In this document: positions 8,462 through 19,961 of the stretch, one piece after another
Layout of the letters: every line of letters starts with the position of its first letter
How positions within the stretch are numbered: the first letter of the stretch is position 1
Virus record (IMG/VR): IMGVR_UViG_3300005323_000007
Strand: one strand, 5' to 3'
Length of the DNA: 49,491 bases
Source: a virus
The notes under the pieces: generated by a model
Seen by the model: the letters and a program-made list of their open reading frames with translations, nothing else
Database searches by the model: none
Told to the model about the DNA's origin: nothing
Position numbers and translations under genes: made by a program

Positions 8462-9910
8462 TTAATAATCCATGATCCGTAGGCCAGATTTGACATCCGC
8501 GTTCTTCTTCGTGGATTCCTCGATGACGTTGAACGGCGAATCCTGATCCGCCATGCCAGCACGGATGTTCTTCATGATGTTGTCATCCGCAAGTGCCGTA
8601 ATAGCCTGATTCAGTTTCTCACCGGACAAGTCCCGCGTAACCTTTTCCGCATACTCAAACGCGGGATTGGTTACATCCTTGTCGCCGACTTTCGCGCTTT
8701 CCGCGCCGAACGCCTTCACGAGCGCGTTTTTGCGCAGCACCGTCGCGTTCTGCTTCATCGCATCGGCGAGTTCCTGCACGACCGCAAGTGTATTCTCGAC
8801 GCCGACAATTTTCTCGATGGCGTTGAGTTTCGTGAGCGCGGCGACATCAGCGTCAGTCTTGAGTTGTGACTCAAGCCCCATCGCCTTCGCTATTTCAGGG
8901 AGCGTAATGAGCGCGTTCTGCTTCATCGCAGGGAGCGCGCCGAGTATCGCTTCCTTCGTTACAATGGTTTCGTCTCCATCCATAGTATTTCCCTTTTTCT
9001 TTTTCTTGGAATCGATCTCTTTTATGAGATCGCTTGCCGTGTTGGAAACATCTTCAAGGCCTTGCGCACTTGCCCGCGACGCTACCGCACGCAGGCCGGA
9101 ACGATAGACCATTTCGTTTTTCACAACAGGATACTTCCACCGAGCTTTCGTATCTTCGGTGGCGCTTTGATCTTCGACCATATGAACTTTTGCGTATGCT
9201 TTCCAGTCGTCTCCATTGGTTCCGAGCAGTTTGTTTTCGTCAGAGCTGGTGAATGACCAGGGAGAGGAATTGTCAATCTTCCCGGCGGCAATGAGAGACC
9301 GTACATAGGATACGCACGTCTTATTCAAAATCTGCCCTTCGGCATTTGTCTTCATGTCCATAGCCCCCGTCCCATAATCGACGGCATCGTTTCGTTCGCC
9401 TCCCATGGATTCCACGCAATACCACTGATGCGTACCATCGGGAAGCGTTTGCATCTCATCGCGGGTGGCCGATACGATTGAAAAATCGACCATATTGGCC
9501 TTGCATTCCTTGATGAACATGGTATTGTCGGTATTAGCACCTTTAGGAGGAACATATATTTTAAGCCAAACGGTTCCAGTTCCGTCACCATTCTTGTCAA
9601 CTCGACCGCCGACATTTATAAAATCAGTTGGGCCACGGGCGCCCCATCGTGTTTCATGTCCGTCTTTCGAGCCTGGGATAGGAGCGCGATTGAGTTTATT
9701 GATATAGGAATCCCAGAATGACTCGATATAGGTATAGCCGTTCGCATAAGTGGGATATTCTATTTTTTCTATTTTATAGTAAGGATTTGAATCTCCAGCC
9801 TGAAATTCGGTGAGAACGTTCGATGGGACAAGTGTTGGGATAGTCGCGGGGTCTATGGTAAGTACGGAGTCATCCGAGCGCCGAAGATTGAACTTCCTCT
9901 GAGTAGGCAT
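8462..9910 (-). CDS. Prohead protease fused to a scaffold-like helical C-terminal region
   Basis: The N-terminal half (...PGSKDGHETRWG...VDFSIVSATRDE) resembles a prohead serine protease. The C-terminal 200 aa are Ala/Lys/Glu-rich and helical. It occupies the position of lambda C/Nu3. Confidence 0.5.
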   Translation of the reverse strand: MPTQRKFNLRRSDDSVLTIDPATIPTLVPSNVLTEFQAGDSNPYYKIEKIEYPTYANGYTYIESFWDSYINKLNRAPIPGSKDGHETRWGARGPTDFINVGGRVDKNGDGTGTVWLKIYVPPKGANTDNTMFIKECKANMVDFSIVSATRDEMQTLPDGTHQWYCVESMGGERNDAVDYGTGAMDMKTNAEGQILNKTCVSYVRSLIAAGKIDNSSPWSFTSSDENKLLGTNGDDWKAYAKVHMVEDQSATEDTKARWKYPVVKNEMVYRSGLRAVASRASAQGLEDVSNTASDLIKEIDSKKKKKGNTMDGDETIVTKEAILGALPAMKQNALITLPEIAKAMGLESQLKTDADVAALTKLNAIEKIVGVENTLAVVQELADAMKQNATVLRKNALVKAFGAESAKVGDKDVTNPAFEYAEKVTRDLSGEKLNQAITALADDNIMKNIRAGMADQDSPFNVIEESTKKNADVKSGLRIMDY

Positions 9911-10852: not shown

Positions 10853-10924
10853 CTAGGGCGGCTGGATTCGAACCAGCGATAACCAGAACCAAAATCTGGC
10901 GGCTTACCACTTGCCTACACCCTA
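10853..10924 (-). tRNA. tRNA-Gln (anticodon UUG)
   Basis: Hand-folded 72-nt cloverleaf. Acceptor UAGGGUG/CGCCCUA with U1-A72 and G73; 3-bp D stem with loop AAGUGGUAA; anticodon stem CCAGA/UCUGG with loop UUUUGGU; T arm GCUGG-UUCGAAU-CCAGC. No CCA is encoded. Confidence 0.85.
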
Positions 10925-11030: not shown

Positions 11031-11102
11031 TGGAGTTAATGGGATTTGAACCCATAACCTTTGGCTTGCAATGCCAACGCTCTACCATTGCGCTATAACC
11101 CC
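11031..11102 (-). tRNA. tRNA-Ala (anticodon UGC)
   Basis: Hand-folded 72-nt cloverleaf. Acceptor GGGGUUA/UAACUCC with the G3:U70 Ala identity pair and A73; anticodon stem UUGGC/GCCAA with loop AUUGCAA; T arm AUGGG-UUCAAAU-CCCAU. Confidence 0.85.
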
Positions 11103-17304: not shown

Positions 17305-17639
17305 TGATGAAAAAAGAGTGGGACGAGTACCGCGCAAAAGACGAGGCGACACCGCGAAAAAAAGTCGTCAAAAACGTCGAAGAAGCGGAATGGTTCTGCA
17401 AGGGCGGAAACTGGAAAAGCACCAAGGTGGCCATATTTGTACAGAGCTATAACCACGCCTCCGCCTGTATCCGGCGTGGAGGGCAGAGCCGCGTCATCCA
17501 GGTGTCGGCTGATACGATGCGCTGGTCGCCGATGGAAACCGTGCGCGAACGCTTAGGCCTCGATCTGATCCAGGGCCTTTATCATACCGAGGAGGAGGCC
17601 CGCGCCGCTGGATGGGATGGCCCCATGACCAAGGGATAG
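17301..17639 (+). CDS. Hypothetical early protein (paralogous motif WSPMETVRERLGLD)
   Basis: ATGA overlap with the upstream stop. Start trimmed to 17301. Confidence 0.5.
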   Translation: MMMKKEWDEYRAKDEATPRKKVVKNVEEAEWFCKGGNWKSTKVAIFVQSYNHASACIRRGGQSRVIQVSADTMRWSPMETVRERLGLDLIQGLYHTEEEARAAGWDGPMTKG

Positions 17640-17694
17640 TAAACGCTTGTGTAGTAGTTATGATGATAAATCGTAAAAATAATAATTATAATCA

Positions 17695-17723
17695 TTGACA
17701 TAATGTCATAACGGGTGTATATT
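17695..17723 (+). promoter_or_regulatory. Near-consensus sigma70 promoter with a palindrome over the -35 element
   Basis: TTGACA, a 17-nt spacer, then TATATT. The -35 element is part of TTGACATAATGTCA. Confidence 0.55.
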
Positions 17724-17756
17724 GATAATAGAGAGATTGAGAGAGGAGATAAAGAG

Positions 17757-17960
17757 ATGACAGCACTAGAGCAGATACAGAGCACACTTCACCGCGATGG
17801 TATGGTGACGGTATCTACTCACCTGAGATGTACACAGTATCTAGGTGCAAAATATGAGCACTGGTTTAGCGATGATGCGCGCGGCGATCTGTATGTACAG
17901 TCTGGAGCCAAACGCGTCTGTATATCGTTTTGTCAGATTAAGTTGTATCAAAAGCGGTAG
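17757..17960 (+). CDS. Hypothetical protein
   Basis: Start trimmed to MTALEQ, preceded by GAGAGGAG. Confidence 0.45.
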   Translation: MTALEQIQSTLHRDGMVTVSTHLRCTQYLGAKYEHWFSDDARGDLYVQSGAKRVCISFCQIKLYQKR

Positions 17961-18033
17961 AGAGCGCGGGCGACGCAGGGCGCGTTAAACCGGAGGCCGA
18001 GTCCAAACCCTCGGCAGGTATGGAGGTAGAGAG

Positions 18034-18270
18034 ATGAAATTGGCGATTGGAGTAAAAACGGTCGATTTGGGTGGTGGTGAGTATTTGCATTTTTGGTATG
18101 CAAATAACGCAGGTAGGGGGTGCAGTAACTGCACAATAATCAGATCCAGAAGCCCTGCCCGTGCAATTTGTGCAAAAAAACAGGCAGATGTCATCTCACA
18201 GGTGAAAACGAGTGCATGGAAGGGCCACGTAAATTTCAGCCAGCCGACAAAAACCGCACTTGGCCTATAG
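18034..18270 (+). CDS. Hypothetical protein (uncertain; the region is also hairpin-rich)
   Basis: 78-aa ORF with GGAGG 8 nt upstream of the ATG. No recognisable motifs. Confidence 0.35.
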   Translation: MKLAIGVKTVDLGGGEYLHFWYANNAGRGCSNCTIIRSRSPARAICAKKQADVISQVKTSAWKGHVNFSQPTKTALGL

Positions 18271-18299
18271 CTAAGGCGATGGGGCCCGCGCAAGCGGGC

Positions 18300-18355
18300 T
18301 CTGGTCTGGCGCTCGATCGCGCCACTGATGAGACCCCGCGAGGGTCGAAACCAGA
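18300..18355 (+). ncRNA. Type III hammerhead ribozyme
   Basis: Reads UCUGGU-C|UGGCGC-UCGAUC-GCGCCA-CUGAUGA-GACCC-CGCGA-GGGUC-GAA-ACCAGA. The full invariant core and GUC cleavage triplet are present. Stems I, II and III are 6, 5 and 6 bp, with stem III open-ended. Confidence 0.85.
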
Positions 18356-18385
18356 AGAGAACTTCAGAAAAATGGAGGTCGTAAG

Positions 18386-18628
18386 ATGAAACGCAGATTT
18401 ATGGCATGGTGCCGTGGAAGTTGTAATAGTTTAAGAGTTACGCGCTCGGCAAGCGACGCGGTTGATGCTGGCGTTGAGGATATTGATTTTGGTATCAACC
18501 TGATGATGTCGGGCGATTCCGTCGCGGTATATCTCAACTCCGGGCGGAAAGGCGACCTGAATCATCTGCTATTGGGCGAGTATTCCCGCGCCGATCTTGT
18601 AAGGATGACGGCGGAGGCCAGAAGATGA
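18386..18628 (+). CDS. Hypothetical protein
   Basis: 80-aa ORF with GGAGG 7 nt upstream. It is the first cistron downstream of the hammerhead. Confidence 0.5.
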   Translation: MKRRFMAWCRGSCNSLRVTRSASDAVDAGVEDIDFGINLMMSGDSVAVYLNSGRKGDLNHLLLGEYSRADLVRMTAEARR

Positions 18629-18664
18629 GATTCGCTACAGCAAGCCAACAATTGGTATGCATAA

Positions 18665-18710
18665 GGCGCGAGCGGTGGTTCTTGTGGCGGTTCAACCCCG
18701 CCACGCGCCA
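18665..18710 (+). ncRNA. tRNA-like acceptor/T-arm minihelix
   Basis: GGCGCG...CGCGCC stem stacked on (G)UGGCGG-UUCAACC-CCGCCA(C), with a T-loop-like UUCAACC, then an unpaired A. Only 14 nt occupy the place of the D and anticodon arms. Confidence 0.5.
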
Positions 18711-18745
18711 GCTTCAGAAAATTTGATATTGCAAGGGAGGTTGAA

Positions 18746-18964
18746 ATGAAAAAGGCAGAACGCGACTCGTTCGCTCGGGCTCTTATGGAAAACGCAATTA
18801 AAGGCATTTGTCGGGGGCTGGAAAATGCCCCTGAAACATGGGATGGTGTAGAAATACGTCAATACTGCATGGATTATGTAAAAAACAATGTTGTTTTCTG
18901 CAAAATGCCAAAAAGTAGGAAGGCCGCATATAATAATACTATTTTAATCAATAATCTTTTATAA
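18746..18964 (+). CDS. Hypothetical protein
   Basis: 72-aa ORF with RBS GGGAGG. Confidence 0.5.
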   Translation: MKKAERDSFARALMENAIKGICRGLENAPETWDGVEIRQYCMDYVKNNVVFCKMPKSRKAAYNNTILINNLL

Positions 18965-18975
18965 GAAGGTAAATC

Positions 18976-19179
18976 ATGATTGATTCTTTGATCGCGTGTT
19001 TCAAAAAGGAAATGACGGTTGCCAAGGCGATTCGCACCACGGCAAAGGAAAAGGGCGAGTGGCCGAGCGCCCGGGATGTGCTTCAGGCGCAAAAAGCATT
19101 GAAGAAAGATGATGACGAAGAGGACGACGAGGACAGTGAAGGTCAGCGGATGATCGACCGAGAAATAGCGAGTTACTGA
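18976..19179 (+). CDS. Hypothetical protein with an acidic tract
   Basis: 67-aa ORF with RBS GAAGG. Contains a DDDEEDDEDSE tract. Confidence 0.45.
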   Translation: MIDSLIACFKKEMTVAKAIRTTAKEKGEWPSARDVLQAQKALKKDDDEEDDEDSEGQRMIDREIASY

Positions 19180-19224
19180 AATGGGGCGTTGCCTTAGTGG
19201 AATATCAGTCGTGGATGTATGACA

Positions 19225-19344
19225 ATGAAGTTGAAAGACAAGCGCACGAAAGCGCAGGCTGAGAAAGCGATCAAGAGGGCGATCCGCAAATTCGGCGACC
19301 GCGACGGTTCACTCAAGAAAAAGCTGAAGGAGGTTGAGGGATGA
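19225..19344 (+). CDS. Small basic ORF (39 aa), below the track threshold
   Basis: Hand translation gives MKLKDKRTKAQAEKAIKRAIRKFGDRDGSLKKKLKEVEG. It has an ATGA overlap with the next gene. Confidence 0.3.
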   Translation: MKLKDKRTKAQAEKAIKRAIRKFGDRDGSLKKKLKEVEG

Positions 19345-19610
19345 ATCTCAATGAGTATCTTGCAACGATTCTACAGTGGCCTGGTCTCACAAAAGAAGAG
19401 GCGGCTGAGGCTCAAGCAAAAATCAAAAGACTTTATCAGGGCCGGAATCTAAAAAACAGAAAAGTGTATTTTACCTATCCTTTTGAAGAAAATAGGCCAA
19501 ATTTATCGCGACTTTTTATTTTTGCTCAAACAAAAGAAGGACATTCATATTGGTATCATCTTTATGAGGCGGAATGCGAATTTTATAGATTAAAGGAGGT
19601 ATCTGGATGA
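19341..19610 (+). CDS. Hypothetical protein
   Basis: 89-aa ORF with RBS GGAGG. Confidence 0.5.
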   Translation: MNLNEYLATILQWPGLTKEEAAEAQAKIKRLYQGRNLKNRKVYFTYPFEENRPNLSRLFIFAQTKEGHSYWYHLYEAECEFYRLKEVSG

Positions 19611-19660
19611 AATAATCGGTCGATTCAAGATTTTGAAAGGGTCGCGCTGAGGCGCGACCC

Positions 19661-19711
19661 CGGTCGTGGCGTGATGCTCGCCGCCTGAATGAGTCCAGCA
19701 GGACGAAACCG
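19661..19711 (+). ncRNA. Hammerhead-like (type III topology) element with a 1-nt core insertion
   Basis: Reads CGGU-C|GUGGCG-UGAUGCU-CGCCGC-CUGAAUGA-GUCC-AGCA-GGAC-GAA-ACCG. The layout matches 18300..18355, but the core is CUGAAUGA rather than CUGAUGA and stem III is only 4 bp. Confidence 0.5.
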
Positions 19712-19730
19712 AAAAATGGGAGGATAAGGA

Positions 19731-19961
19731 ATGACGAATATCCCCACCTCAGTTCATTCGCTCTCGCAACCGGTGCGAAGGTACGATATTCAGGTATCGT
19801 TCTATGGTCGAAGGCCCGTCGCGGAATTCGAAGATATCAAAGCGAATTGTGCGGAGGATGCGAGAGCATGGGCACGGAAAATCTGTGAAGAATATTACTC
19901 ATACCCTATCAAAAACATTATGGCAATCGAAGTCAAAACGATAAGGAGAATGCCATGCTAG
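19731..19961 (+). CDS. Hypothetical protein
   Basis: 76-aa ORF with GGGAGG 7 nt upstream. It is the first cistron after the second hammerhead-like element. Confidence 0.5.
   Translation: MTNIPTSVHSLSQPVRRYDIQVSFYGRRPVAEFEDIKANCAEDARAWARKICEEYYSYPIKNIMAIEVKTIRRMPC

Follow-up and report, generated by a model that had tools for sequence, protein, structure and literature searches.

A type III hammerhead ribozyme in a conserved hairpin-to-start-codon cassette of an uncultured tailed phage, with a probable role in intercistronic RNA processing

Intergenic hammerhead ribozymes that flank phage genes have been known since 2011. The type III hammerheads of phages and prophages (RF00008; Perreault et al. 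2011, PMC3088659) lie between same-strand genes, several copies in an operon can flank single genes or short blocks, and they have been proposed to cut long phage transcripts into gene-length messenger RNAs (mRNAs) (PMC3088659; PMC6765202). For halovirus HF2, a transcript 5' end maps within 3 nucleotides (nt) of the hammerhead cleavage site, and the 'HHphage' hammerhead of haloviruses HF1 and HF2 lies 13 nt upstream of a start codon within a polycistronic unit (PMC3088659). A natural variant with an insertion after core position A6 ("A6a") has low activity, and slow phage variants of this sort were suggested to be conditionally active (PMC3088659). Bacterial and phage hammerheads number in the thousands, and their biological role is described as largely elusive (PMC6765202). 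Here we describe hammerheads in IMG/VR record IMGVR_UViG_3300005323_000007, a 49,491-nt stretch of DNA from an uncultured tailed phage (hereafter the window, numbered from its first letter). We found that positions 18300-18355 of the + strand form a type III hammerhead (hammerhead 1) that belongs to this known kind and sits in a cassette spanning 18283-18388. We consider it probable that the cassette is a portable element for the intercistronic processing of an early polycistronic RNA, and we infer that the hammerhead cleaves in vivo.

Hammerhead 1 reads 5'-UCUGGU-C-UGGCGC-UCGAUC-GCGCCA-CUGAUGA-GACCC-CGCGA-GGGUC-GAA-ACCAGA-3', which confirms to the base the sequence and the invariant positions given in the original prediction, made from the letters of the window. 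Stem III, of 6 base pairs (bp), is open and joins 18300-18305 to 18350-18355, including the A15.1 (18350)-U16.1 (18305) pair. Position 17 is C18306, a non-G base as the motif demands and the last base of the GUC triplet G18304-U18305-C18306. Stem I (6 bp) pairs 18307-18312 with 18319-18324 around loop 1 (18313-18318), and the core strand CUGAUGA (18325-18331) matches C3-U4-G5-A6-N7-G8-A9. Stem II (5 bp) pairs 18332-18336 with 18342-18346 around loop 2 (18337-18341), with G18332-C18346 as the G10.1-C11.1 pair, and the GAA at 18347-18349 supplies G12-A13-A14. Each of the 17 stem pairs can form, and the roughly 13 invariant core positions all carry the required base. Stems I and II are closed by loops and stem III is open, which is the type III topology, and the minimum-free-energy fold of the isolated 56-mer is the exact three-way junction (-23.9 kcal/mol). 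Hammerheads cleave 3' of position 17 and leave a 2',3'-cyclic phosphate and a 5'-OH. By motif numbering, cleavage is predicted at C18306|U18307, where it had been placed before.

We found that a motif of this quality is rarely met by chance. A descriptor demanding the exact core, stems of at least 4/3/4 bp, the A15.1-U16.1 pair and a non-G base at position 17 returned a single type III site in the window, hammerhead 1 (stems 6/5/6); over 3794 random windows matched for composition it gave 4 hits, or about 0.001 for each. The Rfam type III covariance model, named in advance as a check on the assignment, gave 37.9 bits (E 5.3e-7, 251-nt scan), which is below the gathering cut-off of 48.5. We scored 17 environmental type III hammerheads whose cores match the full consensus: 15 also fell below 48.5 bits (32-44), and the other two reached it. 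Hence, the Rfam cut-off is conservative for the environmental type III class, and the sub-threshold score is not counted against hammerhead 1. We trained a custom covariance model on 37 environmental type III hammerheads (window excluded) and ran it with filters off over both strands of the whole window; hammerhead 1 scored 54.0 bits (E 8e-13), a value that is partly high by construction because the training sequences were picked with a pattern that hammerhead 1 also matches.

The covariance scans also depended on their length. Rfam scans of at least 4.3 kb left both hammerheads of the window (the second is described below) unreported even at E up to 1; scans of 160-250 nt recovered both, with E 5e-7 and 2e-4, and the filter-free custom model recovered both too. 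The Rfam speed filters probably hide the two hammerheads in long scans, and whole-genome annotation will miss short ribozymes of this kind that are hidden in this way.

The cassette around hammerhead 1 was found again, in front of a different gene, in L153 (Logan SRR16297627), the single diverged relative of the window phage, whose clamp protein is 96% identical. All assemblies of the window phage itself are 100% identical, and a clamp-protein search of viral contigs for close relatives found none. L153 is a mosaic, and its homology with the window is patchy: it covers the promoter gap 17635-17743 (99%), the block 18283-18388 (88.7%), 18664-18711 with the hairpin of the next gap (98%), one small gene, and everything from 19736 onward. 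The block at 18283-18388 begins at the GC hairpin that the original prediction had seen adjoining the ribozyme, and it ends at the ATG. The genes on its two sides are unrelated, encoding 69 and 142 amino acids (aa) in L153, the latter with an LPD29 domain, versus 78 and 80 aa in the window. Within the block, hammerhead 1 is identical at 55 of 56 positions, and the sole change is C18339U in loop 2. In the hairpin 12 of 12 stem bases are kept but none of the four loop bases is: GCAA in the window is UUCG in L153, and both belong to the classic stable tetraloops. The L153 linker is shorter by 5 nt, TCAGAAAAATGGAGGTCGTAAGATG is identical there, and so are the 25 nt through the ATG. These patterns argue that hairpin stability, ribozyme and translation start are kept together and reused before different genes. 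The earlier suggestion that the element resembles an insulator gains support from this block, conserved from hairpin to ATG while both flanking genes differ.

In the same relative, the intergenic blocks 17635-17743, 18283-18388 and 18664-18711 are kept, with other small genes between them, and one L153 junction falls at a GAGAG microhomology common to window positions 17739-17743 and 17960-17964. The intergenic elements of the operon act as recombination boundaries.

A second hammerhead, omitted from the listing of the original prediction, lies on the same strand 1.36 kb downstream. Positions 19661-19711 read CGGU / C / GUGGCG-UGAUGCU-CGCCGC / CUGAAUGA / GUCC-AGCA-GGAC / GAA / ACCG. The core strand (19685-19692, CUGAAUGA, that is CUGAaUGA) carries an extra base after A6 and so departs from the strict core C3-A9. 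The GAA (19705-19707), the A19708-U19664 and G19693-C19704 pairs and the GUC triplet (19663-19665) are in place, stems I/II/III have 6/4/4 bp, and cleavage is predicted at C19665|G19666. Hammerhead 2 scored 28.4 bits with RF00008 (E 1.7e-4, short scan) and 27.3 bits with the custom model (E 2e-5). When the descriptor was relaxed to a core of CUGA-N1-2-GA, it returned exactly hammerheads 1 and 2 in the window, with 0.013 type III matches expected per random window. The layout is common to both: a hairpin abutting stem III, the hammerhead and a Shine-Dalgarno sequence, all on one strand; after hammerhead 2, GGGAGG follows at 6 nt and ATG at 19 nt. The minimum-free-energy fold of its 100-nt context is hairpin plus hammerhead, with the Shine-Dalgarno sequence unpaired. 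The end of its loop 1 (UGCU) is complementary to its loop 2 (AGCA) over 4 bp, like the covarying pairing of an environmental subfamily described below; no 4-bp pairing of this kind is evident between the loops of hammerhead 1. Hammerhead 2 is identical in five assemblies, extra A included. Hence, the extra A is not an assembly error. Among viral contigs, a search for relatives with the A6a variant gave two pattern matches, neither with a hammerhead fold.

Hammerhead 1 sits among small open reading frames without known function, upstream of replication genes, in a region (about 16.7 to 38 kb) where the + strand is the gene direction. Its place between the stop codon at 18270 and the GGAGG of the next gene is as the original prediction gave it, and both genes are called independently (Table 1). 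We found a sigma-70-like promoter about 575 nt upstream of hammerhead 1, within a 117-nt AT-rich gap, and the 110 nt around it are 99% identical in L153; the consensus scan returned no further promoter-like site on the + strand of 17723-18300. This promoter is likely the start of a transcript carrying both hammerheads. With a promoter there and none other on the + strand before the ribozyme, hammerhead 1 is most likely internal to a polycistronic RNA, itself a predicted transcript. The description of the element as lying in the 5' untranslated region of an early gene therefore stands insofar as it precedes a Shine-Dalgarno sequence and an ATG; it is equally an intercistronic spacer of a polycistronic unit, and the word "early", for the operon as for the gene, is suggested by gene order only.

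Table 1. Coordinates of the elements and genes at the hammerhead locus
Feature	Coordinates	Strand	Basis or remark
Sigma-70-like promoter	17695-17723	+	TTGACA, 17-nt spacer, TATATT; 11/12 matches (consensus scan)
Upstream gene	18034-18270	+	78 aa, function unknown; called as a gene in the JGI and ENA assemblies
GC hairpin, 6 bp, GCAA tetraloop	18284-18299	+	Abuts stem III, ending one base before it
Hammerhead 1, type III, canonical core	18300-18355	+	Sequence, fold, covariance models, descriptor
Linker, Shine-Dalgarno GGAGG (18374-18378) and ATG (18386)	18356-18388	+	Part of the conserved cassette
Downstream gene	18386-18628	+	80 aa, orphan; called as a gene in independent assemblies
Second GC hairpin, 9 bp, UGAG loop	19639-19660	+	Directly abuts stem III of hammerhead 2
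Hammerhead 2, type III, one-base insertion after A6	19661-19711	+	Descriptor, RF00008, custom model, fold
Shine-Dalgarno GGGAGG (19718-19723) and gene 19731-19961 (76 aa, function unknown)	19718-19961	+	Downstream of hammerhead 2

On the processing reading, the polymerase would start at or near 17695-17723 and read through the operon. When the 3' strand of stem III (18350-18355) emerges, hammerhead 1 would fold and cut between C18306 and U18307. The upstream RNA, with genes 17757-17960 and 18034-18270, would then end in the GC hairpin and a 7-nt tail bearing the 2',3'-cyclic phosphate, a terminator-like and exonuclease-resistant end that would be made without stopping transcription. The downstream RNA would carry a 5'-OH, the hairpins of stems I and II, an 18-nt linker and a ribosome-binding site, with 18386-18628 as its first cistron; in the predicted fold of this 3' product, GGAGG pairs within a weak local hairpin. 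Since the cleaved RNA would start with fixed hairpins, linker and ribosome-binding site, the following gene would get the same leader whatever lies upstream. Hammerhead 2, probably slower, would cut 1.36 kb further on and release a five-gene RNA, 18307-19665. A broader proposal, which we hold only tentatively and think less likely true than false, is that the cassette of about 105 nt (hairpin, hammerhead, linker, Shine-Dalgarno sequence and ATG) is the unit of function and inheritance. Phages would move it between genes, it would act as both 3'-end former and insulator, and the canonical (fast) and A6a (slow) versions would set junction-specific processing rates.

Compared with described systems, hammerhead 1 shares core, topology and intergenic site with the phage and prophage hammerheads of Perreault et al., and the function proposed here is the same. 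Like HHphage, it lies shortly upstream of a start codon and most likely within a polycistronic unit, but HHphage requires very high salt or Mg2+ and carries two inserted nt near C3 (PMC3088659), whereas the core of hammerhead 1 is canonical. RiboJ (the sTRSV hammerhead plus a 23-nt hairpin, PMC8794103) is likewise a type III hammerhead upstream of a ribosome-binding site that strips upstream RNA, so that the downstream gene always gets the same structured 5'-OH leader; the reuse seen in L153 would be a natural counterpart. The two differ in that the RiboJ hairpin is downstream of the ribozyme and keeps the ribosome-binding site exposed, whereas here the hairpin is upstream and would stay on the 5' product, and in that RiboJ is placed just after a promoter, whereas the natural cassette lies between cistrons. 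Two features of the locus go beyond the phage-hammerhead literature that we found: a cassette conserved in full from hairpin to ATG although its neighbouring genes have been exchanged, and the presence of a canonical hammerhead together with an A6a variant in the same operon.

The hairpin upstream of hammerhead 1 also resembles intrinsic terminators and 3' stabiliser hairpins, which likewise have a GC-rich stem and a stable tetraloop just after a stop codon. A 34-nt segment that includes this hairpin ranks among the most stable 0.17% by folding energy in the window, and the cleaved upstream RNA would end, like a terminated transcript, in a hairpin and a short tail. As an intrinsic terminator it was rejected: the next bases are TCTGGTCTGG, there is no T-run, and the terminator scan did not list it. 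The 3' end would come from self-cleavage of the RNA and not from release by the polymerase.

We compared the locus with a wider class of environmental hammerheads, found with the search pattern GTCTGG...CCACTGATGAG...CGAAAC. This pattern matched 18 loci in viral contigs, only 8 in 185,579 species genomes and more than 119 in metagenomes. Among the matches listed, to which the counts in this and the next paragraph refer, there were 99 distinct cores in 60 clusters, nearly all with pairing stems; the stems of the 99 cores differ in sequence yet pair, and the cores are not demonstrably homologous copies. The loci lie mostly between same-strand open reading frames, 10-35 nt upstream of a Shine-Dalgarno sequence and start codon, and at 38 of about 145, single genes are flanked by multiple same-strand hammerheads of types I, II and III. 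This arrangement has been in the literature since 2011 (PMC3088659). Dense same-strand clusters of mixed type include six hammerheads in L020, five in L042 and four within 1.4 kb in L109, and L084 holds another; in L038 a type III hammerhead is preceded, at about 400 nt, by a type II whose score exceeds the Rfam cut-off. Exact and stem-fixed DNA patterns, run on viral contigs, returned only L022 (a type I hammerhead) and L023 (not a hammerhead).

In about one third of the clusters a strong hairpin ends within a few bases of stem III. In the family of L006, L012, L034 and L055 this hairpin resembles a terminator whose T-run doubles as the 5' strand of stem III, and the hairpin stem shows a compensatory change (CCAAG/CUUGG versus CCGAG/CUCGG). 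Such hairpins are enriched relative to windows 120-400 nt away but not relative to hammerhead-free intergenic gaps of the same contigs, and we rejected the hairpin as a hammerhead-specific partner. The gaps are short, so the adjacency of hairpin and hammerhead is partly forced. On these grounds we take the hairpin for an element common in intergenic gaps, which the ribozyme adjoins in a recurrent layout.

The loops of the environmental class show a pattern of their own. In the subfamily of L004/L014, L005, L016, L018, L019 and L021, loop 1 has 7 nt (UGAUNNN) and loop 2 has 6 nt, and positions 4-7 of loop 1 covary with positions 3-6 of loop 2 as a 4-bp pseudoknot, with the pairs UCCC/GGGA, UGCC/GGCA, UACC/GGUA, UGCU/AGCA and UGAC/GUCA.

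Several observations weigh against a processing role for hammerhead 1. Fast hammerhead cleavage at physiological Mg2+ needs a tertiary contact between loops 1 and 2. The loops of hammerhead 1 offer only three complementary bases (UCG/CGA), which 47% of shuffled loops equal, and a pseudoknot between them is indistinguishable from chance; the C18339U change in L153 would keep this contact through a G-U pair. The 96-nt context favours a fold other than the hammerhead, one with an extended hairpin and a non-native helix (active fold -38.4 versus minimum -42.1 kcal/mol), with a stem III probability of about 0.03 (about 0.22 in L153 by the same calculation), although nearest-neighbour folding leaves out hammerhead tertiary contacts and differences of 1-4 kcal/mol are within its error. 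The stems of hammerhead 1 show no covariation, because L153, the sole non-identical relative, has the same stems. The promoter call rests on a consensus scan whose total of promoter-like sites is not above that of shuffles. Hammerhead-free gaps have equally strong hairpins, 44% of them at -12 kcal/mol or stronger, and the operon gap with hairpin 18683-18705 has no ribozyme. Finally, L153 has neither hammerhead 2 nor the hairpin next to it, so that hammerhead 2 is dispensable, and its core variant is one reported to have low activity (PMC3088659).

The predicted misfold is also the starting point of a different explanation, a regulated switch, which we regard as unlikely. Here the hairpin would gain 2-3 pairs with the 5' strand of stem III and so block the hammerhead. 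Melting of this extension, for example by a ribosome that terminates at 18268-18270, the stop codon some 11 nt upstream, would couple processing to translation of the upstream gene. The extension, which the original prediction had proposed, was indeed obtained with RNAfold in window context: G18281-G18283 pair with U18302-U18300 at a probability of 0.5-0.67, lengthening the hairpin to 18281-18302 at the expense of stem III. In addition, the footprint of a ribosome at the stop codon would reach about 18281-18283, and in many of the environmental type III hammerheads among the matches listed, the 3' arm of a hairpin upstream shares 0-4 nt with stem III. However, the switch that had been built on the extension found no support in L153, which has AAG in place of GGG and retains one G-U pair, with the rest of the cassette kept and the competition much weaker. 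Hammerhead 2 reaches its hairpin-plus-hammerhead fold without competition, and the energy differences at stake are no larger than the error of folding models that take no account of hammerhead tertiary structure.

We give slightly less credence again to an idle motif, that is, a relic or hitch-hiker at a recombination-prone junction that would cleave barely or not at all in vivo and leave expression unchanged. The absence of a convincing loop-loop contact and the local misfold predicted to compete with the active fold are what such a motif would show, the intergenic junctions of this operon act as mosaic boundaries anyway, and hammerhead 2 is lost in L153. Yet the core and stems of hammerhead 1 are wholly intact, and a neutral relic should decay at least as fast as its surroundings. 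Hence, the near-identity of the hammerhead in L153, kept though hairpin loop, linker and both genes changed, weighs against an idle motif.

The two hammerheads are in tandem orientation, the GGU/ACC parts of their stem IIIs are identical, which makes a hybrid 3-bp stem III possible, and 5'-OH and 2',3'-cyclic-phosphate ends fit RtcB. Excision of the 1.36-kb RNA 18307-19665 and its closure by an RtcB-type host ligase or the reverse reaction into a circular five-gene mRNA, as in plant retrozymes, which are reported to make circular RNAs with type III hammerheads (PMC4918200), is nevertheless very improbable, since spliced or circular products of clustered bacterial hammerheads were sought by Perreault et al. 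and none found (PMC3088659), L153 is without hammerhead 2, so that the pair is not a conserved unit, the core variant of hammerhead 2 is of low activity, and the 3-bp hybrid stem would be weak. Intercistronic processing by hammerhead 1 remains the reading that we prefer.

Two other ribozyme candidates of the window were examined. A hammerhead candidate at 8823-8874 (- strand) was rejected; it is without A9 and without stems I and II, and it lies inside a coding region. A twister type P5 candidate (RF02684) at 17956-18013 (+ strand), in the gap just upstream of gene 18034-18270, scored 22.9 bits versus a cut-off of 37.6 (E 0.12 in 4.3 kb). Compared with the description in PMC5408937, its T2 contact is possible through a compensatory change (GG/CC for GC/GC), T1 has only one of three pairs, and only its first hairpin is kept in L153. 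The sequence at 17956-18013 is probably not a twister.

The gap that follows the downstream gene, 18629-18745 (117 nt, intercistronic), holds a strong hairpin at 18683-18705 (+ strand), GUGGCGG-UUCAACC-CCGCCAC; we found this hairpin only, with no Rfam match and no recognisable ribozyme in the gap. The 10-mer CUUCAGAAAA is common to the linker after hammerhead 1 (18363-18372) and to this gap (18714-18723).

The window phage encodes a large terminase, a GpJ-like tail protein, a sliding-clamp-like protein, an SbcC-like protein and a VapE-like primase/helicase. Its terminase is at most 31% identical to those of isolate phages, and megablast of the window against isolate phages gave no nucleotide match. 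Two transfer RNA genes at 10853-10924 and 11031-11102 (both - strand; 64 and 69.7 bits versus RF00005) lie between the structural and packaging genes. For the 78-aa upstream protein Pfam gave nothing and PHROG only a weak hit, to a family of unknown function, the sole match of the 80-aa downstream protein among 5.8 billion proteins is itself, and the small genes flanking the hammerheads have no informative PHROG or Pfam match.

This locus is a compact case in which a canonical and a core-variant hammerhead occur in one short operon, with a defined prediction for both RNA ends, and L153 offers a natural comparison in which one cassette is kept before a different gene and the other hammerhead is absent. 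Should the cassette reading be false, the locus would be one more catalogued phage hammerhead. If it is true, the cassette would explain why hammerheads are positioned just upstream of ribosome-binding sites in phage operons, and such cassettes would be natural compact parts for operon engineering.

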